The position numbers and the translations under genes were made by a program. A stretch of 64,000 nucleotides of DNA from a virus (taxonomy: Duplodnaviria; Heunggongvirae; Uroviricota; Caudoviricetes), in IMG/VR virus record IMGVR_UViG_2718218133_000001; one strand, given 5' to 3'. The notes beneath the pieces were generated by a model. It ran no database searches. It had not been told where the DNA came from and worked only from the letters and a program-made list of their open reading frames with translations. Within the stretch, counting starts at the first letter, position 1. Every line of letters starts with the position of its first letter. Below are positions 14,209 to 59,823 of this stretch, one piece after another.

Positions 14209-15482
14209 CCACTATAACCAAAGAGCGACTGCTGACAATCAAGCAGTGGCGCGAAACATACGGACCGGGTAGCAACGTTGTACTGCCAGCAGAAGAAGCG
14301 GAAGAACTGGCACGGATTGCTCTGGCATCGCTGGAAGCAAAACCAATAGGTGCATTCCACATTGCAGAACAGCAAGTTGACGGCACAAGTGACTACCTCA
14401 AGGATGGAGAATGGCCTATTGATAATGGAATTATTGAGGTCTACGCCGCTCCCCCCGTTCCAGTAGTACCGGAAGAAAAACCAATGCCTAACGCTCTAAG
14501 CATGCTTGAAAGAGAGATCACACAACTGATTGGTGATGCGCAGGAAGCCACTGTTACTGGCTATGAGTTAATCGCTGAAGCTTGGCGTTTGATGGATGGA
14601 CAAGACCCTAAAACCAGCGATTGGCATAGCAAGGCTTCGAAGTATTTAAATTCCAATATTGTAGAAAAAGTTGATGATGACCGTATTGAGGCTGTTAAGG
14701 CTGTTTTGCGTAGACTGGCTGGCAACTCTCCGGTAATTCCAGGTGAGGTGCTGTCAGCAATTATGAAGGTTGCCAGGGTTCGTGCCGATTTCGATGATTT
14801 TGACGGTGACAGGCGAGGTGTCGGTGATTGTCTGGATGAGGCTGAGCAAGAGCTTATCGTTACCATTAACAAATATGCCAGTCAGTTGGCAGCAGAACCG
14901 ATAGCGACTAATAACGTTCGAGAGCAGCAGACAGCCGTTCCGCCAGTTCCGGAAATACAGGATGATGTCGCGCAAGCAATTGAAAATCTCAAGCAGAAGT
15001 TAGTGGAATGCAATCGCTATAACTACTGCGCAGATGCAGTTAAAGGCGTAGAGGATGCCTGCCACGCTGCCATGCTTCAGGGTAGCCAACCTGTAAGCCA
15101 AACTTACAAGTTGCCAGTTAATACACCTTGCCAAGATGCGCCAGCCCATATCTGGCTGCAAACGGCTGGAGTATGGCCAGAAGATGGCGAGTTAAGCGAA
15201 TTAACGTGGTGCAGCCACAATCAGCACCATGATGACACGCTATATGTTCGAGCTGACCTTGTGAATGGCAACTCTCCGGTAACTCCGGATGGTTGGATAA
15301 GCTGTAGTGAGCGAATGCCCGCTCAAGATGATTGGATTTTAATTTATTCAAAGCACGGTGAGTATATGGCAGGACAGGTGCAAGGGGAATACGTAGAGTT
15401 GAGCGACGGCACTTTATCGTGGTTAGGGAACGCCTTGTTCTGGATGCTGCTACCAGAACCTCCCCAGGAGGCAGGTCAATGA
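14205..15482 (+). CDS. DUF551-domain protein
   Basis: 425 aa; C-terminal W..CSERMP..W-type DUF551 signature common in enterobacterial prophage early regions. Confidence 0.55.
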   Translation: MTTITKERLLTIKQWRETYGPGSNVVLPAEEAEELARIALASLEAKPIGAFHIAEQQVDGTSDYLKDGEWPIDNGIIEVYAAPPVPVVPEEKPMPNALSMLEREITQLIGDAQEATVTGYELIAEAWRLMDGQDPKTSDWHSKASKYLNSNIVEKVDDDRIEAVKAVLRRLAGNSPVIPGEVLSAIMKVARVRADFDDFDGDRRGVGDCLDEAEQELIVTINKYASQLAAEPIATNNVREQQTAVPPVPEIQDDVAQAIENLKQKLVECNRYNYCADAVKGVEDACHAAMLQGSQPVSQTYKLPVNTPCQDAPAHIWLQTAGVWPEDGELSELTWCSHNQHHDDTLYVRADLVNGNSPVTPDGWISCSERMPAQDDWILIYSKHGEYMAGQVQGEYVELSDGTLSWLGNALFWMLLPEPPQEAGQ

Positions 15483-48825: not shown

Positions 48826-50741
48826 GCCGCTACCCCCGCTTTCTGGATTGCTACCAACAGATCAGCCAGGTGGCGAGCTGCGCCGTTAACCAGCTCTTCG
48901 TTTTCCTCAAAACGTCCGGCAGCCTGAAGGGCTGCAATCGCTTCCCGGACATTGCCCCGGGCGTTACGGATCTCCGCCATGTCAGTGCTTTGTATATCCA
49001 TCACGTTATTGAGATATTCAATGGCTTTATTAGCCTCTGCATCTGCTTCGCTAACCGTTTCATCAGGCTGTGCCGTGGCCGGTTCTGGCTGAGTAATCTC
49101 ACCGACTTCGGCCTGCAATGCATTGATCATGCTCTGCACCATTTTCTCGGTGCCAGCGCCCCCCGGAAACGCAATATTGGGGAAAGTTTTTTGAAACTGA
49201 GTTTTCAGCATTACGCGGAACTCGTCTGGTGAGCTGGTGGCCAGCTCCAGAGCTTTTTGTGCATATTTGCCAAACGGACCATTAGTAAGTGTCTTCGCCA
49301 GGAAGTCGAAAGAATCCTCGCGAGGCAATAACTTCAGGTCGTACTCACTCATTTGCTGATCAGAAAGCGGGGTATCGTAAGTAGCAATGCCGTAGCGTGC
49401 ATATTCATAATACGGGTCACCTTCATCAGGGCGCGGCAGAATTGCTTTGTTACCTTCAGGTATTGCGCCAGGGGCCGCCGGACGCATTTGCAGGGCATAT
49501 CGATATGCACCTACAGAGACTTCTGGTTCAGGCGAAGAGCTACCGGTATCCTCCGCTGGTTCAGGTTCGACGTTTTCCGGTTTATGTTCTTCTGGTTGGA
49601 CCAGGTATTCCGATACATTACCCGCTTTATAGGCTTTAAACAGCTTGCCGATCGCATCTGCCATGTCCACACCCTGTATGGATTTAGCCTTGATCATGTA
49701 TACGCTGCCATCCGGATCGGTTAACTGGATATACCCTTCGCCGCCCCCAATGAATTGCTTCATTGATGCACCATTACTGAGCGTCACTTCCCCGTCCATA
49801 TGCATACGATTTTTGATACTGGCAAGGCGATCCGTCAGCGCGCGAGAGTGCCCACCAGTCATCCCCGCTGGAGCAATGGTATCGCGCCCACCAGTGCGAT
49901 TGAGCTGATCAATCTCCGTCTGCAAACGCTCATTCTCTTCATAAAGAGAATCCGCTTCCGATGCAACAGCGTTAATTTTCTGCTCCAGATCTGCCTTCTG
50001 CCCTTCTACCGCTGCCACCTGATCCGCGAGGTCGCTCATGGCATCCTCTTTCTGGTCACTGTCAGCCTGTAGTTGGGTTATTTCATCAACAAGGGCTTTT
50101 TTCTTCTTCTGCGCACGCTGGAATTTTGCCGAGTTTTTCTCTGCAAGGTTGGCAAGTTTCATGGTGACCTGCGCCAGCGTCATATCACGTCCACTCATCG
50201 GAGCAACGGTGTGAGTAACGTCTTTTTTATTCAGTAAGAACTGGAAAGCAACCAGCGTATCGCTATTGGTGATCCGGTTTTCCGCTGTCGGGCTATGAAA
50301 CAGAATGCTGATAGTCTGACCATCACTGAGCGGAATAATGGCTGGCAAGACCGGCAGCCCGTTAACGTTACGTGCCCGGCCAATTTCAGCGCCGCCGATC
50401 GCGCGCGCGCCGCTCTGGGCCACATCCCCCGTTTTATCACTCCCCGCAGAGATTCCGGTACCATTCAGCTTCTGGTTCAATGCCCGGACAAATGCCTGCA
50501 TGGTCCGGTGTAACTGCAAACGAGTAGAACTAATCGCCTCCAGTAAATCCGTAGCACACCAGTGGATCGGCGTGTCATAGAAGAACGTAGCCTCGATTTC
50601 CTCCAGGGTGTTGGATTCCGTCATCAGATAGCGGTCCTCACCGGCCATTAATGCGCGATATTCATCATCAGTCACTGGCGGGGGAAGCACGTCAAGCCCA
50701 GGCTTGATCGTCACCCCTTTATTGATATTGAACTGTTCCAT
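48822..50741 (-). CDS. darA: DarA antirestriction/head internal protein
   Basis: 639 aa, the size of P1 DarA. Confidence 0.8.
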   Translation of the reverse strand: MEQFNINKGVTIKPGLDVLPPPVTDDEYRALMAGEDRYLMTESNTLEEIEATFFYDTPIHWCATDLLEAISSTRLQLHRTMQAFVRALNQKLNGTGISAGSDKTGDVAQSGARAIGGAEIGRARNVNGLPVLPAIIPLSDGQTISILFHSPTAENRITNSDTLVAFQFLLNKKDVTHTVAPMSGRDMTLAQVTMKLANLAEKNSAKFQRAQKKKKALVDEITQLQADSDQKEDAMSDLADQVAAVEGQKADLEQKINAVASEADSLYEENERLQTEIDQLNRTGGRDTIAPAGMTGGHSRALTDRLASIKNRMHMDGEVTLSNGASMKQFIGGGEGYIQLTDPDGSVYMIKAKSIQGVDMADAIGKLFKAYKAGNVSEYLVQPEEHKPENVEPEPAEDTGSSSPEPEVSVGAYRYALQMRPAAPGAIPEGNKAILPRPDEGDPYYEYARYGIATYDTPLSDQQMSEYDLKLLPREDSFDFLAKTLTNGPFGKYAQKALELATSSPDEFRVMLKTQFQKTFPNIAFPGGAGTEKMVQSMINALQAEVGEITQPEPATAQPDETVSEADAEANKAIEYLNNVMDIQSTDMAEIRNARGNVREAIAALQAAGRFEENEELVNGAARHLADLLVAIQKAGVAA

Positions 50742-50742
50742 G

Positions 50743-51345
50743 TTAATTTCCTGCTTTCAGTTGCTTAAGACGGCGTTTGAGTTCGCCATTTCGGGCCTTT
50801 TCGTTATTGAGTCGGCCTGTCTCCTTATCCAGCTTCGCCCGCAAATCAGTGATCTGCTGTTGATTGAAAGACACCGAGTTCTGCGCTGATTTATAAGCGG
50901 CAACCACCTGAGCATTCCGCTGTTTTGCCTCTTGCAGGCGCTGAAAGTTGGATTTTACTGCCGGTTTCTTGTCTACCGGATTGGCAACACGTTTCGCTTT
51001 GGCGATCAGTGAGTTCTGGAATTTTGCGGAGTTTTTGCGGGCCGCTTGCCCCATGACGGTACCAAGCGTCTTGATATCCGGCGATTGAGCGTTAGGAATA
51101 GCTTTTCCATTCAGCCTCACAGACGATATATCGCCAGTATCGTTTACCTGTATGGCAAGAATTTGTCCGTCGTTAAGAACCAGCTTTGCGGTTTTAACTT
51201 TAACGCCATCTTTCGTTGTTGCGCGGTTGCTGGAGTCAACCTCAATTACCGTAACACCGGTTTTATTGATCGCCGCGATAAGGGATTTCAGCCCCTTTTC
51301 ATTAACCTGGTCAAAATCGACCGTTGCATACTTATTTTTCGTCAT
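50743..51345 (-). CDS. hdf: homolog of DarA fragment
   Basis: Shares KNSAKFQ..coiled-coil segment with DarA; ATG at 51345 has better RBS spacing than the track start. Confidence 0.5.
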   Translation of the reverse strand: MTKNKYATVDFDQVNEKGLKSLIAAINKTGVTVIEVDSSNRATTKDGVKVKTAKLVLNDGQILAIQVNDTGDISSVRLNGKAIPNAQSPDIKTLGTVMGQAARKNSAKFQNSLIAKAKRVANPVDKKPAVKSNFQRLQEAKQRNAQVVAAYKSAQNSVSFNQQQITDLRAKLDKETGRLNNEKARNGELKRRLKQLKAGN

Positions 51346-51775
51346 CTGACACATCCTGTGCGAGATTTATTACGTAACTTCTGCGGATTTGCTGAGTAAC
51401 AGGGAAAATCCGATACAACGGGTTAATGAACGAGTCGCCATGCGTAACCATGACGTTGAAATGCCACAGTCGCTCTCCTTTACCCATATATTCAGTGGGT
51501 ATGTACAACCATTCACTGTTTTCGCCCTGTTCAGCCGACGTCAAACAACGTTGTTCGCCTTCAATCACTGTCGTCGGCTTCTGAACATCGCGGATCCAAT
51601 ATCTGACCGTTGCGCCGCGCAAAAACGGGAATTTAGACCGGTATTTGAACGGCACCCGGATGAAACCCGGTTTAATTTCCACATCACCAAGTTCTAAATG
51701 CGTGATGTCCTTGCGTTTTAGCAAATAGCGATCGGCTAAGGCTAACGCAAGAACGCATACACCCCAGCCAATCAT
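51332..51775 (-). CDS. hypothetical protein with N-terminal hydrophobic segment
   Basis: 147-aa ORF. Confidence 0.3.
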   Translation of the reverse strand: MIGWGVCVLALALADRYLLKRKDITHLELGDVEIKPGFIRVPFKYRSKFPFLRGATVRYWIRDVQKPTTVIEGEQRCLTSAEQGENSEWLYIPTEYMGKGERLWHFNVMVTHGDSFINPLYRIFPVTQQIRRSYVINLAQDVSDDEK

Positions 51776-52101
51776 TTCCCGCCTCCCTTTTTCACCAAAC
51801 TTGTAAGAACATTCAGAATGCTATCGATATTCACTCGTTTCATCCCTGAAATCACCTCATGACCGTTATTGCTGGCTATCGTTACCATTAAGTACGTAAT
51901 TGATAACTCCCAGCCCTCGTGTTGCCCCAATAGGTACGCCACCGCGCCAGCTGTCACTGCAACAAAGATCTCCGTAACCAATCCCAACAAATTGCCAGAC
52001 TGGCGACCGTCTCGGACATCCATCAGGAACGTGCCTATCCCACCAATTACTGAAAGCAGGAGCGCAATAGCAACTGGAGCTAATTCCTGTGTGTCAAGCA
52101 C
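51772..52101 (-). CDS. holin-like membrane protein
   Basis: 109 aa; two or three predicted TM segments, charged C-terminus; may correspond to a P1 lyd gene. Confidence 0.4.
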   Translation of the reverse strand: MLDTQELAPVAIALLLSVIGGIGTFLMDVRDGRQSGNLLGLVTEIFVAVTAGAVAYLLGQHEGWELSITYLMVTIASNNGHEVISGMKRVNIDSILNVLTSLVKKGGGK

Positions 52102-52175
52102 AAGTTCCCTCCTACGTTGTCAGGAGGTAATGGTATGCAAAGTAACTTCTCAACCGGTTATGTTGCATAAGAGAC

Positions 52176-52439
52176 TTACCTATTCAACCGACTTTTGGAA
52201 CCTTCAATAATAAGCCTGCTATTGGCGCTGAAAATAAGAACCATGCAGCTCTGAAGGCTTTCATTCATATCCTTATATTCCGCGAGATACATGCCAATAA
52301 AGCCAGCAAGTACGGCGGAAATACATTCGGCCAGCAATTTCTTGCATGAAGACTCGTAACGGTTTTCACATAGCCCACTCAAATACGAATACACCCCACC
52401 AAGAAGGGATAACATCACGATATGTACATAAAATGTCAT
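52176..52439 (-). CDS. holin/antiholin-like membrane protein
   Basis: 87 aa, hydrophobic. Confidence 0.35.
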   Translation of the reverse strand: MTFYVHIVMLSLLGGVYSYLSGLCENRYESSCKKLLAECISAVLAGFIGMYLAEYKDMNESLQSCMVLIFSANSRLIIEGSKSRLNR

Positions 52440-52566
52440 TTTTTACCTATACAACAGTAAGTTGAACAACATCTGAGAACGGTATGCACTTTGTGATTTC
52501 CACACACACTGGTTTTGTTAATTAAAACCTGTAGCTTGCAATAAATAACGATAGTGGGCAGAAAAT

Positions 52567-52750
52567 ATGCTAATAGGCTATGTACGCATATAGACAAATG
52601 AACAAAACACAGCTATGCAGTGAAAAGCACTTGAAAGCGCAGGATGTGAGCTAATTTTTGCGAATAAGGCGAGCAGCAAAAAGGCTGGGCACCCTGGGTT
52701 AAAAAAGGTTCTGCGTATGCTTTCCAGAGGTGATACCCTAGTCTCGGGCT
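52567..52750 (+). pseudogene. decayed N-terminal fragment of a P1 Cin-type invertase gene
   Basis: ATGCTAATAGGCTATGTACGCATA then in-frame stops; after repair reads MLIGYVRI..STNEQNTA.Q..ALESAGCELIF..KKAGHPGLKKVLRMLSRGDTLV. Confidence 0.5.
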
Positions 52751-52874
52751 AGGGACAACATTTCGAGGACAGTTTTCATTAGCGGTCAGCAGGCGCTAGA
52801 TACATCGAATTGATGTGCCGCGCGATAAATGTACCTATTCTATCAAGATAAATTACACCGACGCGGCATTAGAA

Positions 52875-53447
52875 TTACAGCTCAGATTGAGTTTGGCGCT
52901 TCTCTACAGGATGATAACGATAAATCGTCGATACACCGATATCGTAAATAATTGCCAACTGTTTCCTGCTGTAGCCATTTTCGATCAACCTCGCTATTTG
53001 CTCATGTTGTTCTTTTGTCAACTTCGGGCGACGTCCGCCAATGCGTCCCTGTTCGCGTGCAGCTGCCAGTCCGGCCAGTGTTCTCTCAACAATTAATTCA
53101 CGTTCCATTTCTGCTAAAGCCCCCATGACGTGAAAAAAGAAACGCCCCATGGGTGTTGATGTGTCAATACTGTCTGTCAGACTACGGAAATTAACACCTT
53201 TTTCCCGCAACTCCTCTATAAGCGTGATAAGGTGTTTCATACTTCTGCCAAGCCTATCCAGCTTCCAGACAACCAGCGTATCTCCTTCTGATAACGTTCT
53301 GAGCAGCTTTTTCAAGCCTGGTCTGGCTGACTTTGTTCCGCTTATTTTATCTTCAAAAATCAGTTCACATCCTGCGCAGTTCAGTGCATTTCTTTGTAAA
53401 TCTGTGTTTTGGTCATTTGTTGACACACGAATGTAGCCAATTTGCAT
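52875..53447 (-). CDS. serine DNA invertase (Cin/Min/Gin/Hin family)
   Basis: 190 aa from ATG 53447; catalytic GYIRVSTNDQNTDLQ (Ser) and C-terminal HTH; adjacent to first crossover site. Confidence 0.85.
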   Translation of the reverse strand: MQIGYIRVSTNDQNTDLQRNALNCAGCELIFEDKISGTKSARPGLKKLLRTLSEGDTLVVWKLDRLGRSMKHLITLIEELREKGVNFRSLTDSIDTSTPMGRFFFHVMGALAEMERELIVERTLAGLAAAREQGRIGGRRPKLTKEQHEQIARLIENGYSRKQLAIIYDIGVSTIYRYHPVEKRQTQSEL

Positions 53448-53501
53448 GAAAAACAACCTCTTTGTTTAGTTAAAAATACATCGTTGGTATAGGTAGGGAT
53501 T

Positions 53502-53527
53502 AAGACTAAAACGTTGGTTTGGGGGAA
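53502..53527 (-). other. crossover site 1 (26 bp, core TT/AA at 53514-53515)
   Basis: Minus strand reads TTCCCCCAAACC-AA-CGTTTTAGTCTT, gix/cix-like half-sites. Confidence 0.55.
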
Positions 53528-53994
53528 GGCTCTGCATTGCCTGTTGGTGTACCTGTTCCATGGCCCTCAGCCACACCACCAACGGGGTGGCTAAAATGTA
53601 ACGGAGCAGCATTTTCTTCTGAAAAGTACCCAAATCTGGCAAAGGTTTACCCAACGTTAAAATTACCTGATTTACGCGGTGAGTTTATCCGTGGTTGGGA
53701 TGATGGGCGCGGGGTGGATGCGGGACGTGCTTTATTGAGCATTCAGACAGGAATGCTGGAAAAGCACCGACATATTGTTGTAGCCAATGATGGTTACGAC
53801 ACAAAAGATGAATGGGAGCTGGCGACAATTTTCAAAAAAACATACACACAAGGACGGGGCTTGATGCCTCAAATACAGGAGGGAATTTGATTCCATCACC
53901 GACACTTCATTCTCGAGGGAGTATTGGTAATACTGGCGGGAGTGAAACCCGTCCACGAAATATCGCATTTAATTACATCGTAAGGGCGGCATAA
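53516..53994 (+). pseudogene. promoterless tail-fibre tip cassette A, frameshifted
   Basis: Conserved N-term GEGSALPVGVPVPWP..; frame breaks near A7 run (~53832); conserved C-term ETRPRNIAFNYIVRAA in another frame. Confidence 0.4.
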
Positions 53995-54013
53995 AAACGT
54001 TGGTTTGGGGGAA
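53988..54013 (-). other. crossover site 2
   Basis: Same 26-bp pattern, core 54000-54001. Confidence 0.5.
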
Positions 54014-54502
54014 GGCTCTGCATTGCCTGTTGGCGTACCTGTTCCGTGGCCATCAGCCACACCTCCAACGGGGTGGCTGAAATGCAATGGTGCAGCATTT
54101 TCTTCTGAAAAGTACCCAAATCTGGCAAAGGCTTATCCCACCAATAAATTACCGGATTTACGGGGAGAATTTATTCGTGGCTGGGATGATGGGCGTGGCA
54201 TTGATCCTAGACGTGCCTTGCTAAGTCTTCAGAATGGAGGAGTGGAATCACACACCCACCAAGGGCAGCTCTTCAGAGTTAGTGATTATCGTACAAATGA
54301 AATACCAGCATCAGAAGTTATGGGAAGAAACTATCTTGCAAGCCTGACGCCGGGTGCTAATAGCCCACTTGATTTTGATGATTATCCTGTAGCTCTTATT
54401 CCAAATGGATATTTTGTCGGGAATCAGAGAACAACAGCATATGGGATAAATGAAACCCGTCCACGGAATATTGCATTTAATTACATCGTAAGGGCGGCAT
54501 AA
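54005..54502 (+). CDS. promoterless tail-fibre tip cassette B
   Basis: 165 aa; no ATG; conserved ends, unique middle. Confidence 0.5.
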   Translation: MGEGSALPVGVPVPWPSATPPTGWLKCNGAAFSSEKYPNLAKAYPTNKLPDLRGEFIRGWDDGRGIDPRRALLSLQNGGVESHTHQGQLFRVSDYRTNEIPASEVMGRNYLASLTPGANSPLDFDDYPVALIPNGYFVGNQRTTAYGINETRPRNIAFNYIVRAA

Positions 54503-54521
54503 AAACGTTGGTTTGGGGGAA
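54496..54521 (-). other. crossover site 3
   Basis: Core 54508-54509. Confidence 0.5.
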
Positions 54522-54941
54522 GGCTCTGCACTGCCTGTTGGTGTGCCCGTTCCGTGGCCCTTAGAAACACCACCAACGGGCTGGCTAAAATGTAACGGAG
54601 CAGCATTTTCTTCTGAAATGTATCCCAAACTGGCAAAAGCCTACCCCACCAATAAATTACCGGATTTACGCGGTGAATTTATCCGTGGCTGGGATGATGG
54701 GCGCGGGATTGATGCGGGACGTACCCTGCTTTCAGGGCAGGATGGTACAAGTTTTTCTCATTACGGAGGTAATTTCGACATTGGGTCTGGTCATTCAATC
54801 AATAACTATGACCAAATTGTTTCTAACCAACCAGGATTTTCCCGTTTTTCATTTGCAGGGCCTTCACGAGGTGATGGGGTTAATTATGTAACCATTCGTC
54901 CTCGTAACATTGCGTTTAATTATATCGTAAGGGCGGCATGA
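54513..54941 (+). CDS. promoterless tail-fibre tip cassette C
   Basis: 142 aa; conserved ends, unique middle. Confidence 0.5.
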   Translation: MGEGSALPVGVPVPWPLETPPTGWLKCNGAAFSSEMYPKLAKAYPTNKLPDLRGEFIRGWDDGRGIDAGRTLLSGQDGTSFSHYGGNFDIGSGHSINNYDQIVSNQPGFSRFSFAGPSRGDGVNYVTIRPRNIAFNYIVRAA

Positions 54942-54960
54942 AAACGTTGGTTTGGGAGAA
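54935..54960 (-). other. crossover site 4
   Basis: Core 54947-54948. Confidence 0.5.
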
Positions 54961-55449
54961 GGCTCTGCATTACCTGTTGGTGTCCCTGTTCCGTGGCCTT
55001 CAGCCACTCCGCCAACAGGCTGGCTGAAATGCAACGGTGCGGCTTTTTCTGCTGAAGAATACCCGGAACTGGCAAAGGCTTACCCGACAAATAAATTGCC
55101 TGATTTACGTGGTGAGTTCATTCGTGGCTGGGATGACGGGCGCGGGATTGATCCAGGTCGCTCTATTTTAAGCGAGCAAGGATATGCAACGGAGGATCAT
55201 GCTCACGGATTACCGTCAAAATCAACCGTAGCAACTGACAGCTCAATTAATTTCTACTTTGACGAGGCATGGGCTACTAGTGGTAATACGGGAGTTATCA
55301 GATGGGGGAACACAAGCGATGCAGGATTGCCAGCCCCTAATTATGGAACTTTTAAAACATATAAACAGTCCGTAGCTAATTTAGGTACTGCTGGCTTAGA
55401 AACCCGCCCTCGTAATATTGCATTTAATTATATTGTGAGGGCGGATTAA
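54952..55449 (+). CDS. promoterless tail-fibre tip cassette D
   Basis: 165 aa. Confidence 0.5.
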   Translation: MGEGSALPVGVPVPWPSATPPTGWLKCNGAAFSAEEYPELAKAYPTNKLPDLRGEFIRGWDDGRGIDPGRSILSEQGYATEDHAHGLPSKSTVATDSSINFYFDEAWATSGNTGVIRWGNTSDAGLPAPNYGTFKTYKQSVANLGTAGLETRPRNIAFNYIVRAD

Positions 55450-55454
55450 TTATA

Positions 55455-56066
55455 TCAACTGGCTGTAGAAAGTTGTTTTTCAGGCCAGTTGAGATCTGGT
55501 GCCGTGGTTAAATCCATCGCGTTCAGCTCGTCTATATAATCTAGCACGGAGTTAAGCTGCGTGGTTTCTGCCTGCGTCAACTTCCGTCCAGCCCGTAATT
55601 TCAACTGAATCAGACTAATGGAATCCATCGCAGTATCAATCAATGACTGACGTTTTGTTTCTGCTGCCTCTACAGCTGCACTATGTTGAGCCTCAGTATC
55701 AACCACCCATTTCTCTCCATCCCATTTGTCGTATGGTGTTAGCGGGGCGATAGTGGTTGTATTTTCCGGATAGTCACCCAACACCGTGATTTCTTCGGGA
55801 TTCCCTGTGTCAATGCTATAGACAGTTTCGCCACGATGATCTGGCACATACTCCCATGAACTTAAATCCTCTGAACGGAGAATCGCATAACCTGCTTTAT
55901 GTGAGCCTGGAGCATCCAAACAAGAATGTGCCGGAATACCAACGCCAACAGCAAGATATTCAGTTGATGCAGAAATATATTCCCGATTACCACCATCATA
56001 GTTATAAACGATAATGTTTCCTGCCTGTATGGCTATAAGTTCGCTATTTAATATCGCATTATCCAT
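55455..56066 (-). CDS. tail fibre assembly chaperone (Tfa/U-like)
   Basis: 203 aa; start overlaps stop of cassette E (TAATG). Confidence 0.65.
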   Translation of the reverse strand: MDNAILNSELIAIQAGNIIVYNYDGGNREYISASTEYLAVGVGIPAHSCLDAPGSHKAGYAILRSEDLSSWEYVPDHRGETVYSIDTGNPEEITVLGDYPENTTTIAPLTPYDKWDGEKWVVDTEAQHSAAVEAAETKRQSLIDTAMDSISLIQLKLRAGRKLTQAETTQLNSVLDYIDELNAMDLTTAPDLNWPEKQLSTAS

Positions 56067-56524
56067 TATGCTGCTCTCACAATATAATTGAAGGCAATGT
56101 TACGTGGGCGGGTTTCATTCCCCCCAGATAACTCCGTTCTGTATTGACTGGTAAATTTACCATTAATCGCTCCTTCTTGGACGGCGTTATCTGTCGACAA
56201 CAGGCTATCCCCCCCTCTGTCATTTGGCACCAATACCGTGTTATCCCACGCGTCCCATGACCGAATATTATGATAATGACTTCCTGTTAACCACCCCTGT
56301 ATGCTTAAGATGACCCTTCCCGCATCCACACCTCGCCCATCATCCCAACCACGGATAAACTCACCGCGTAAATCAGGTAATTTTAACGTTGGGTAAACCT
56401 TTGCCAGATTTGGGTACTTTTCAGAAGAAAATGCTGCGCCATTGCATTTCAGCCACCCCGTTGGAGGTGTGGCTGATGGCCACGGAACGGGCACGCCAAC
56501 GGGCAGTGCAGAGCCTTCCCCCAA
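56066..56524 (-). CDS. tail-fibre tip cassette E (coupled to tfa)
   Basis: 152 aa; same conserved ends. Confidence 0.5.
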   Translation of the reverse strand: MGEGSALPVGVPVPWPSATPPTGWLKCNGAAFSSEKYPNLAKVYPTLKLPDLRGEFIRGWDDGRGVDAGRVILSIQGWLTGSHYHNIRSWDAWDNTVLVPNDRGGDSLLSTDNAVQEGAINGKFTSQYRTELSGGNETRPRNIAFNYIVRAA

Positions 56525-56541
56525 ACCAACGTTTTATGCCG
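56516..56541 (+). other. crossover site 5
   Basis: TTCCCCCAAACC-AA-CGTTTTATGCCG; opposite orientation to sites 1-4. Confidence 0.5.
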
Positions 56542-56797
56542 CCCTTACGATGTAATTAAATGCAATGTTACGAGGACGATGGTTACATATTACGACCATC
56601 AATCGTGAATGTCCAGTATAATGAAAAACTCAATAATTCCGTCTTAGGCTGTAGATAATACTTGTCATAGTTATGATTGAATGACCAGACTCAATGTCGA
56701 AATTACCTCCGTAAAGAAAACAATATGTCTGATCCTGCCATTCTGAATAGCAGTACGTCCAGATCAATCCCCGCCCATCATCCCAGCCGCGATAAAT
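56530..56797 (-). pseudogene. degenerate remainder of cassette F (C-type) currently joined to S
   Basis: DNA alignable to cassette C but with indels; S reading frame stops early at 56798. Confidence 0.4.
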
Positions 56798-59377
56798 TCA
56801 CCCGTAAATCCGGTAATTTATTGTGGGTAGCCTTTGCCAGTTTGGGATACTTTCAGAAGAAAATGCTGCACCGTTGCATTTCAGCCACCCCGTTGGAGGT
56901 GTGGCTGATGGCCACGGAACGGGCACGCCAACAGGCAGTGCAGAGCCTTCCCCCAAACCAAGGTAATTAAGAACGCTCTGAATACTGGGCTTACTAAGAA
57001 TTGCACGTCCAACACTTGTCAGTGCAGTTAACGCGGCACGATCAACCCCTGTGAAATAAGGGAGTTTATCTGCTGCGGTAGCTAGTGCCGCTAGAGCAGT
57101 GAGCGTAGCGTCTGCCGCTTGCTTTCCATTAGCCAAATCATATGCAGCCTTGACAGCTTTCGGTGTAGCGGCCAGCACTTCAGACGTGCTGTTAGTGGCA
57201 CTACTGAGCTGAGTGATGCCTTTCGCTGTCAATGAAGCTGTTGGCACACCAGTAATCTGATTCCAGGGATGTGTATGACTGGATGGTGCTTTTTCGGCTG
57301 CTAGATCGTATGCAGCTTTAACCGCTTTTGGCGTTGCAGCTAATGTTTCAGAAGTGCTGTTGGTGTCGCTACTGAGCTGAACTATCCCTTTTTGTGTCGT
57401 GGTTGCATCCTGGGCTGTATACTTCCCGTTAGCCAGGTCATATGCAGCCTTGACAGCTTTCGGTGTGGCGGCCAGCACTTCAGACGTGCTGTTAGTGGCA
57501 CTACTGAGCTGAGTGATGCCTTTCGCTGTCAATGAAGCTGTTGGCACACCAGTGATCTGATTCCAGGGATGTGTATGACTGGATGGTGCCTTTCCGGCTG
57601 CTAGATCGTATGCAGCTTTAACCGCTTTTGGCGTTGCAGCTAATGTTTCAGAAGTGCTGTTGGTGTCGCTACTGAGCTGAACTATCCCTTTTTGTGTCGT
57701 GGTTGCATCCTGGGCTGTATACTTCCCGTTAGCCAGGTCATATGCAGCCTTGACAGCTTTCGGTGTGGCGGCCAGCACTTCAGACGTGCTGTTAGTGGCA
57801 CTACTGAGCTGAGTGATGCCTTTCGCTGTCAATGAAGCTGTTGGCACACCAGTGATCTGATTCCAGGGATGTGTATGACTGGATGGTGCCTTTCCGGCTG
57901 CTAGATCGTATGCAGCTTTAACTGCTTTTGGCGTTGCAGCTAATGTTTCAGAAGTGCTGTTGGTGTCGCTACTGAGCTGAACTATCCCTTTTTGTGTCGT
58001 GGTTGCATCCTGGGCTGTATACTTCCCGTTAGCCAGGTCATATGCAGCCTTGACAGCTTTCGGTGTGGCGGCCAGCACTTCAGACGTGCTGTTAGTGGCA
58101 CTACTGAGCTGAGTGATGCCTTTCGCTGTCAATGAAGCTGTTGGCACACCAGTGATCTGATTCCAGGGATGTGTATGACTGGATGGTGCCTTTCCGGCTG
58201 CTAGATCGTATGCAGCTTTAACCGCTTTTGGCGTTGCAGCTAATGTTTCAGAAGTGCTGTTGGTGTCGCTACTGAGCTGAACTATCCCTTTTTGTGTCGT
58301 GGTTGCATCCTGGGCTGTATACTTCCCGTTAGCCAGGTCATATGCAGCCTTGACAGCTTTCGGTGTGGCGGCCAGCACTTCAGACGTGCTGTTAGTGGCA
58401 CTACTGAGCTGAGTGATGCCTTTCGCTGTCAATGAAGCTGTTGGCACACCAGTGATCTGATTCCAGGGATGTGTATGACTGGATGGTGCCTTTCCGGCTG
58501 CTAGATCGTATGCAGCTTTAACCGCTTTTGGCGTTGCAGCTAATGTTTCAGAAGTGCTGTTGGTGTCGCTACTGAGCTGAACTATCCCTTTTTGTGTCGT
58601 GGTTGCATCCTGGGCCGTATACTTCCCGTTAGCCAGGTCATATGCAGCCTTGACAGCTTTCGGTGTGGCGGCCAGCACTTCGGACGTGCTGTTAGTAGCA
58701 CTGCTGAGCTGAACTAATCCCTTTTGCGTTGTGCTTGCATCCTGCGCCGTATACTTGCTTTTCGCCAGATCGTAGGCTTTTTTAACTGCCAGCGAACTTG
58801 CAGCGACATCACTTCTGGTACTGGTTACAGAGTCGGAAATTTCAATGCCTATCGTGAGATCGATGCGGTCGGATACATCTATCATTTCCTGAGTAATAGC
58901 AGATACGCCAGCAGGGATATTCACCGTACAAACAAGCAGTTCCCCATCTCCTAACTGATATGAATCGGTATAGGTTCTGGCAACAAATTCAGCTGCATGA
59001 ATATGTGACGCGGTATTCACCTGATAGGTATCTTCTCCAAGAAGGTATCTTCCCTTCAGCACAATTGCATATTTCTTGCCTGCGTTAAGTGCAAGAGAGA
59101 TATCCTTACGATGCTGAATAGTTACCTGGTAGAATTCACCAATATCCACTGACGCCGCGCCAGCGGTTTTATCTCCATCCACTGAGGTGATTAACAGGTT
59201 CATCCCACCGCCAGGCTTAGGCAAGAAACCAGCATAAAATCCCGGGTCAACAATTCCCCTGAATTTTCGGTTTAGAGCGGCTGACAGATATGGTTCGTGG
59301 TATTGCACATCAGCCACCAGAGCCAACGACTCGGGTGATGGGTAAGTAACCGATGTAACAACTGTAACGTCATTCAT
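56798..59377 (-). CDS. tail fibre protein S (current configuration fused to cassette F)
   Basis: 859 aa from ATG 59377 (AAGGA RBS); tail-fibre repeats KAVKAAYDLA..TTQKGIVQLSS; C-terminus ends prematurely inside cassette F. Confidence 0.8.
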   Translation of the reverse strand: MNDVTVVTSVTYPSPESLALVADVQYHEPYLSAALNRKFRGIVDPGFYAGFLPKPGGGMNLLITSVDGDKTAGAASVDIGEFYQVTIQHRKDISLALNAGKKYAIVLKGRYLLGEDTYQVNTASHIHAAEFVARTYTDSYQLGDGELLVCTVNIPAGVSAITQEMIDVSDRIDLTIGIEISDSVTSTRSDVAASSLAVKKAYDLAKSKYTAQDASTTQKGLVQLSSATNSTSEVLAATPKAVKAAYDLANGKYTAQDATTTQKGIVQLSSDTNSTSETLAATPKAVKAAYDLAAGKAPSSHTHPWNQITGVPTASLTAKGITQLSSATNSTSEVLAATPKAVKAAYDLANGKYTAQDATTTQKGIVQLSSDTNSTSETLAATPKAVKAAYDLAAGKAPSSHTHPWNQITGVPTASLTAKGITQLSSATNSTSEVLAATPKAVKAAYDLANGKYTAQDATTTQKGIVQLSSDTNSTSETLAATPKAVKAAYDLAAGKAPSSHTHPWNQITGVPTASLTAKGITQLSSATNSTSEVLAATPKAVKAAYDLANGKYTAQDATTTQKGIVQLSSDTNSTSETLAATPKAVKAAYDLAAGKAPSSHTHPWNQITGVPTASLTAKGITQLSSATNSTSEVLAATPKAVKAAYDLANGKYTAQDATTTQKGIVQLSSDTNSTSETLAATPKAVKAAYDLAAEKAPSSHTHPWNQITGVPTASLTAKGITQLSSATNSTSEVLAATPKAVKAAYDLANGKQAADATLTALAALATAADKLPYFTGVDRAALTALTSVGRAILSKPSIQSVLNYLGLGEGSALPVGVPVPWPSATPPTGWLKCNGAAFSSESIPNWQRLPTINYRIYG
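56948..56973 (+). other. crossover site 6 at S constant/variable junction
   Basis: TTCCCCCAAACC-AA-GGTAATTAAGAA; left half-site identical to site 5. Confidence 0.5.
57111..58760. repeat. about 5.5 tandem copies of a 300-bp unit inside S
   Basis: Unit boundaries at 57121/57421/57721/58021/58321/58621; copies 2-5 differ by only a few bases. Confidence 0.85.
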
Positions 59378-59388
59378 CAAGCATATCC

Positions 59389-59823
59389 TTATGCTGTAGT
59401 CGAGTTTATGGCCATAACTGCGGTATATGTTTTGCCCACATACAGCGAGTCTTCCTGGACACAAATAATGGCGATTGGCTTATTCTCGTTATCCAGAACA
59501 ACCAGAGTGTTGAATGGGTAGTTTTTCCCTTCCTGCAACTGACTTTGATCAAGGTCCATTCGGACAGTAATTATCCCGCCTGAGTAGGTTGGGACGAGGT
59601 TGATGGTGCAAAATTGACTGGTCAGTTCTGCCAGATCGAAAGCCTTTGGCAGTTCTCCAATCTCATAAGTGCCATCTCCTTTCTTAGTAACCAGTGAACT
59701 GGTACCGAAAACGGCCTTGCTGATTAAAAATCGAGAGCCTTTGTTAATGGACGATTCAGCGCGCCGCTGATAGTAATAGTCCAACAACTGACTCTTATAG
59801 AGGTTTGTTGAGACGTCAGACAT
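59389..59823 (-). CDS. tail/baseplate protein upstream of S
   Basis: 144 aa; position corresponds to P1 R. Confidence 0.35.
   Translation of the reverse strand: MSDVSTNLYKSQLLDYYYQRRAESSINKGSRFLISKAVFGTSSLVTKKGDGTYEIGELPKAFDLAELTSQFCTINLVPTYSGGIITVRMDLDQSQLQEGKNYPFNTLVVLDNENKPIAIICVQEDSLYVGKTYTAVMAINSTTA

Follow-up and report, generated by a model that had tools for sequence, protein, structure and literature searches.

Inversion systems that resemble the locus described here are found in phage P1, in plasmid p15B of E. coli 15T-, in phage Mu and in lambdoid and P2-like prophages. P1 has an intact invertase gene, cin, which is directed towards the C segment, the invertible one, and overlaps cixL with its 3' end; two cix sites serve this one segment. 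In Mu (Gin and the G segment) and in lambdoid and P2-like modules of the Pin type, the invertase gene is not part of the invertible region, and its transcription leads away from that region. The Min system of p15B is said, after work of Sandmeier et al. in 1990/1991, to comprise six mix sites within 3.5 kb. Sandmeier, Iida and Arber reportedly described a truncated cin-like 5' region beside min (J Bacteriol, 1992), and they are said to have proposed Min as a substitute for an ancestral Cin-type system.

Our present analysis concerns a 64,000-nt stretch of phage DNA, called here the window, in which the beginning of a cin gene and a complete invertase gene lie side by side (Table 1). We propose that a foreign Min module very probably replaced the Cin system at this place and left a dead cin stump behind. 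The feature as such is the known cin relic of p15B-type plasmids, which is already on record and ordinary. The GenBank record of P1 annotates three homologies with p15B (ECP15BG): P1 30674..31240 corresponds to p15B 7728..8294 (lydA), P1 31570..31832 is "89 pct identical (1 gap)" to p15B 7147..7408, and P1 31684..31754 corresponds to p15B 6463..6533 (the min enhancer). A single relation, p15B coordinate = 59886 - window coordinate, fits all three (lydA, pseudo-cin and min enhancer), so that the layout lydA-stump-min of p15B shows no net insertion or deletion. The window agrees with p15B (X62121) in the placement of the stump and its distances from lydA, lydC and min, in the 89% identity to P1 31570-31832 with one gap, and in carrying nearly the same invertase; no difference was detectable in this comparison, which was made by the coordinates annotated in the P1 record. 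It also has six crossover sites in about 3.5 kb, as is reported for the Min system of p15B. A segment of 441 bp (52440-52880) is found in phages vB_EcoM-813R1 (100%) and vB_EcoM-673R5 (99.5%), and at least 80% of it is carried by 146 plasmids of the plasmid collection. A literature search found no paper on a "pseudo-cin" of p15B; our view of the prior record is based on the P1 annotation in GenBank and on PMC6906374.

Table 1. Features around the cin stump, the min gene and the invertible region, in window coordinates
Feature	Coordinates	Strand	Basis or remark
lydC-like holin gene	52176..52439	-	87-aa ORF; ~80% nt identity to P1 lydC, collinear
cin upstream/promoter remnant	52478..52566	+	alignment to P1 31570-31659, mapped P1 signals
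pseudo-cin	52567..52743	+	codons 1-59 of P1-type cin
counterpart of P1 sis enhancer (cin nt 19-90), decayed	52585..52656	+	10/72 positions differ from P1
filler TCGGGCTAGGGA, 12 nt	52744..52755		matches neither P1 cin nor the D6-like lineage
spacer, left part	52756..52807		common to the D6-like psi-cin/min lineage only; absent from prophage loci L004 and L005
spacer, right part; native 3' flank of min-type genes	52808..52874	-	recurs beside prophage invertases
min, intact Din-family serine DNA invertase gene, 190 aa	52875..53447	-	domains, homology
mix site 1	53502..53527	+	score 22.6; 55 bp upstream of min start codon
putative Min invertible region	53519..56945		six alternative tail-fibre C-terminal cassettes and one assembly gene
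mix site 2	53988..54013	+	score 25.8
mix site 3	54496..54521	+	score 25.8
mix site 4	54935..54960	+	score 24.0
mix site 5	56516..56541	-	score 22.0; inverted orientation
mix site 6	56948..56973	-	score 22.4; end of constant part of tail-fibre gene
gene S, constant 5' part	56974..59464	-	888-aa ORF 56798..59464; reads into mix site 6

Left of the stump, the window presents a P1 backbone. Positions 49988-52743 are collinear with 1-2767 of the P1 locus (94.9% over 2.77 kb) in the order darA, hdf, lydB, lydA, lydC, cin promoters and cin nt 1-177; the homology ends abruptly at 52743 and the DNA to the right of this point is foreign to P1. The last intact backbone gene ahead of the cin remnant is the lydC-like gene, annotated as "phage holin family protein" in identical plasmids. 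Between this gene and the stump, the -35 element of P1cin is intact (TTTCCA, 52497-52502), the -10 element at 52523-52528 reads TAAAAC instead of TAAAAT of P1 and has thus lost its conserved last T, and the Shine-Dalgarno sequence is GGG instead of GAG. A generic promoter scan predicted no + strand promoter in this remnant. The annotation of phage P7 places a C1 operator site, Op(lydC), upstream of cin; inspection by eye found no CTCTAAT core of a counterpart upstream of the stump. In two close phage-plasmids (L002, 957-1982; L006, 1-677), a gene for an IS200/IS605 (IS609) transposase or TnpB lies just past darA.

Nt 1-177 of P1 cin have their orthologue in the stump, which occupies the same site downstream of lydC, behind the same promoter-region DNA. 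Compared within the window, the stump aligns to cin without a gap (89.3% identity, E=1e-63), and in the phage collection the longer segment 52478-52743 matches P1 31570-31836 (89.9%, E=4e-96). The + strand translation of 52567-52800 reads MLIGYVRI*TNEQNTAMQ*KALESAGCELIFANKASSKKAGHPGLKKVLRMLSRGDTLV and then passes into unrelated sequence. With both in-frame stops masked, the 59 residues reach 37.1 bits against Pfam Resolvase (cutoff 23.3), so that chance is no explanation for the observation, which is real; 49 of the 59 are identical to Cin and 37 to Min. The first stop replaces codon 9 (52591-52593, TCA for Ser9 changed to TAG), which we take, by homology with the established Ser9 of Gin, to be the position of the catalytic serine, and the second replaces codon 19 (52621-52623, CGA for Arg19 changed to TGA). 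Codons 60-186 of cin are absent. Over the 59 codons the stump differs from P1 cin by 10 nonsynonymous changes, the two stops included, and 6 synonymous ones, which are small numbers. The stump is thus a pseudogene comprising the 5' third of a P1-type cin. A sequence-only reading of this DNA, which had described a + strand fragment with two in-frame stops closely matching the first ~60 residues of a Cin-type invertase, is borne out by the translation and by the significant nucleotide alignment alike.

The gene opposite the stump is, as judged from its domains and homologies, a complete member of the Din family, to which Gin, Cin, Hin, Pin and Min belong. Its product contains the Resolvase (PF00239, 174 bits) and HTH_7 (PF02796, 56 bits) domains and the motif YIRVSTNDQ with Ser9 present, and matches the structure of Mu Gin (4m6f) with E=4e-92. 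An exact copy of the protein is entered in UniRef as "DNA-invertase" (Q05517_ECOLX). It differs in one residue (I6V) from the invertase of pJIE250-3, which Venturini et al. found 98.5% identical to Min of p15B, X62121 (PMC6906374). From this comparison, and from the enhancer homology at the coordinates predicted for p15B, the gene is assigned as min. Its 5' coding region is homologous to the sis region of P1, in which 54 of 72 positions are invariant across six functional invertase genes. The identity of Min is 74% to Cin as well as to Gin, and 95-96% to invertases of a lambdoid (L004) and a P2-like (L005) chromosomal prophage. Since the DNA is only 70% identical to P1 cin, min is a different allele, as the sequence-only reading had held. 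The geometry, given there as head-to-head, has to be corrected: the stump reads rightward from its 5' end at 52567 and min leftward from 53447, so that 131 bp separate the two 3' ends and the genes are convergent (tail-to-tail). P1 thus has an intact cin directed towards its invertible segment, whereas the window has a dead cin and a putatively active invertase reading away from a six-site array. The latter orientation is that of the Mu Gin and Pin-type modules; Mu Gin and the Pin-type prophage loci have no cin stump, and their backbones are unrelated.

A further case of this design is a D6-like lineage, represented by plasmid pEc-050-T5-ESBL_3 (NZ_CP086493.1). There too a dead stump converges on min, the spacer is homologous, and the min genes agree in 99% of their nucleotides; the inversion region is simpler than that of the window, and the lineage was seen in 14 near-identical plasmids only. 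The D6-like stump, upstream DNA included, is 84% identical to D6 and extends to cin nt ~306-330. Its lesions are deletions of 2 and 7 nt, with an intact Ser9 codon, where the window has stops instead of frameshifts; PGAP annotates it as a frameshifted, incomplete recombinase. Homology between window and D6-like lineage resumes at 52756 (CAACATT...GTTTTCATTAG) with ~81% identity. Relative to the D6-like state, the window has lost cin nt 178-~330 along with some bases at the junction, and carries the 12 nt TCGGGCTAGGGA instead. As a longer stump stands before the same spacer in the D6-like lineage, 52743 is likely not the original junction, and the breakpoint at this position is, on the aligned sequences, probably a secondary deletion. 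The junction (52730-52755) reads ACCCTAGTC up to the breakpoint and TCGGGCTAGGGA behind it, with an inverted repeat CCCTAG / CTAGGG around the breakpoint; this repeat may be a trace of the repair by which the stump was shortened.

Behind the filler, the spacer is composed of two parts. The right one shows 81-88% identity to the DNA directly 3' of the invertase genes in the lambdoid (L004) and P2-like (L005) prophages, where the neighbouring genes are lom and ppiD, respectively; both prophages thus share the 3' flank of min with the window. The spacer was found in 171 of 5426 complete E. coli genomes. A permissive local alignment had hinted that it might be a decayed form of cin nt 330-407. This was rejected and the resemblance taken as chance, because the same bases flank invertases in prophages without any cin context. 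The right part folds into an imperfect hairpin without a U-run (-27.7 kcal/mol, z = -1.8), and there is a weak terminator-like match at 52869-52855. An intrinsic terminator after min was rejected, the weak hairpin without a U-run being the only candidate.

When 52756-53524 was compared with locus L003 of the D6-like lineage (4001-4770), the spacer differed at 23 of 118 positions (19%), and min with its upstream DNA as far as the first mix site at 6 of ~645 positions (0.9%). Divergence switches at the stop codon of min. The sequences suggest that the min gene alone may have been exchanged recently, or gene-converted, between the p15B-type and D6-like lineages.

The following course of events would account for these arrangements. 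The window is, in this view, a p15B-type, P1-like plasmid prophage whose ancestor would have had the P1-type order lydC, cin, cixL, C segment, cixR and S. An incoming module for the tail-fibre tip would have displaced all DNA from a point inside cin as far as S; it would have consisted of mix-flanked cassettes, of min transcribed away from them, and of ~65-120 bp of the gene's own 3' flank. The right join would presumably have been made by homology in the tail-fibre gene and the left join, inside cin, by an illegitimate event. The 5' part of cin would have been left dead and would have gained substitutions and stops, one of them in place of the catalytic serine. In the p15B lineage, a small deletion that brought in 12 nt of filler would later have shortened this remnant to nt 177. 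Min would now invert DNA at the six mix sites, using an enhancer within its own 5' coding region, while the stump, to judge from its decay, would do nothing. The sequence-only reading had considered replacement of a resident cin, and this part of it agrees with the change from P1-collinear to foreign DNA at 52743 and with the recurrence of the invertase and ~65 bp of its flank in prophages. The travel of this flank with min-type genes in unrelated prophages, together with an invertase directed away from the cassettes, points to that pool of phages as the likely source of the module.

The 52 nt of the left part of the spacer belong neither to cin nor to the flank of min, and their presence in both lineages argues for a single original junction. 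Each stump, together with its upstream DNA, resembles the cin of its own backbone, P1-type or D6-type, so that a single event implies that the module afterwards passed from one backbone to the other by recombination within cin. A search for the expected intermediate, a long-stump plasmid of the P1 type, found none; two independent insertions of the same min-type donor, one into a P1-type cin (at nt 177 at least) and one into a D6-type cin (at nt ~330), are therefore a minor alternative, which we regard as unlikely. Independent insertions would be in keeping with a min block that is 99% identical between the lineages, against ~80% in the flanks, a pattern indicating that the module does move, but they would require that two illegitimate events captured the same donor end, with the same 52 nt after both stumps.

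It is very unlikely, in our estimate, that the stump is anything but inert, be it as a cis element (a residual Fis enhancer or a convergent promoter) modulating tail-fibre switching, or as a homologous landing pad by which the min module passes between backbones. Positions invariant in the six functional invertase genes are mutated in 5 of 54 cases in the enhancer counterpart and in 4 of 50 in nt 91-177; with equal rates in both parts, and with small numbers, the enhancer seems to have no protection. The lesions taken together point to a decaying relic under apparently neutral decay.

Replacement of the Cin system by a Min module also has to be held against another origin of the stump, in which Cin or Min recombined a true crossover site with a quasi-site in the resident cin, inverting or deleting DNA, and the stump was one product. 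Din invertases are known for an occasional use of quasi-sites, reportedly from work on Cin of P1, and cin stumps whose ends fall within nt ~177-330 occur in several P1-like and D6-like plasmids. Crossover sites were scored by a half-site matrix derived from P1 cixL together with the six mix sites, with which true mix and cix sites score 20-26 and the 99.9th percentile of the window is 3.5. The best score was 0.0 at the junction of the window, where no hybrid crossover site was found, and at most 0.6 at the junctions of four other lineages. Within the 64-kb window, min alone aligns to cin nt 178-561; as a complete gene with just 70% identity to cin, it cannot have arisen by rearrangement of part of the latter. 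With neither a site at the junction nor a displaced 3' part of cin in the window, the suggestion of the sequence-only reading that an inversion had passed through a secondary crossover site inside cin finds no footing, and we consider such an origin extremely improbable.

That the stump has been kept for a role in cis, as a second Fis-bound enhancer for Min or as a source of convergent transcription from the cin promoters into the 3' end of min that tunes inversion, has practically no chance of being right: the enhancer homologue, the -35 element, the unchanged block of nt 64-94 (CTTGAAAGCGCAGGATGTGAGCTAATTTTTG), the direction of the stump towards min with no convincing terminator between, and the recurrence of 5' stumps of at least 177 nt in several lineages would favour it, but invariant enhancer positions are hit as often as the remaining stump, the last T of the -10 element is lost and the Shine-Dalgarno sequence altered, the promoter scan predicts none, the D6-type stump has different lesions and only 80% identity, and stumps of nt ~186-236 persist in plasmids without any invertase, where an enhancer is useless. 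A functional enhancer or promoter in the stump was accordingly rejected for lack of excess conservation, for the damaged -10 element and for the negative promoter scan.

Four P1-like or D6-like plasmids illustrate such stumps: L009 (2501-2701), L010 (2501-2705), L011 (2501-2733) and L012 (2501-2684), ending at cin nt ~212, ~217, ~236 and ~186, respectively. In all four, DNA of tail-fibre assembly genes or cassettes follows the stump immediately, with no invertase gene; L009 and L010 have one common junction. By their sequences, loss of the invertible system by deletion is a repeated occurrence in P1-like and D6-like plasmids.

The locus presents what would be a clear case of modular host-range exchange among temperate phages, in which an invertase-plus-cassette unit of the Mu-like, P2-like or lambdoid kind took the place of the Cin system resident in a P1-like plasmid, leaving a scar that can be dated. 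The substitution is said to have been inferred for p15B about thirty years ago, and the window therefore adds no new principle. What is added is a longer stump, of the D6 type, at the same junction, the assignment of one spacer segment to min as its native flank, and evidence suggesting recent movement of min between lineages. The practical value lies in annotation, since PGAP misses the p15B-type stump, which is unannotated in identical plasmids. In a paper on P1-like resistance plasmids, the min gene was called "cin in reverse orientation" and held to be likely non-functional (PMC6906374); such min genes would instead represent a complete, different inversion system.

The six 26-bp mix sites, four on the + and two on the - strand, span 53502-56973 (3.47 kb), and none would be expected by chance. 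Together with min, this array is, as read from the sequence, the Min multiple-inversion system. Four cassettes lie on the + strand and two on the - strand, a tail-fibre assembly gene occupies 55455-56066 (-), and in the list of open reading frames the cassettes share a recurring N-terminus, MGEGSALPVGVPVPWP...KCNGAAF. Related plasmids have differing orders of cassettes beside min, which is consistent with shuffling. Only one sequence outside the Min region, GACCCTAAAACCAGCGATTGGCATAG at 14604-14629, scores above 10 with the crossover matrix; its score of 12.2 is far below the 20-26 of true sites, and the match is probably due to chance.

Two cassettes of the present configuration are damaged in sequence. 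The one adjoining min (53519-53994, +) is covered by two overlapping reading frames, 53519-53890 and 53812-53994, and appears frameshifted in comparison with the intact cassettes of 142-165 aa. The one now fused to S (56536-56945, -) has lost single bases at many points where its sister cassettes retain them, so that the S reading frame stops at 56798, ~150 nt beyond the mix site. The fibre would be truncated in the present S configuration, owing either to real decay or to sequencing error. Within the constant part of S, 57122-58712 (-) consists of 5.3 tandem copies of a 300-bp (100-aa) unit with 98% identity.
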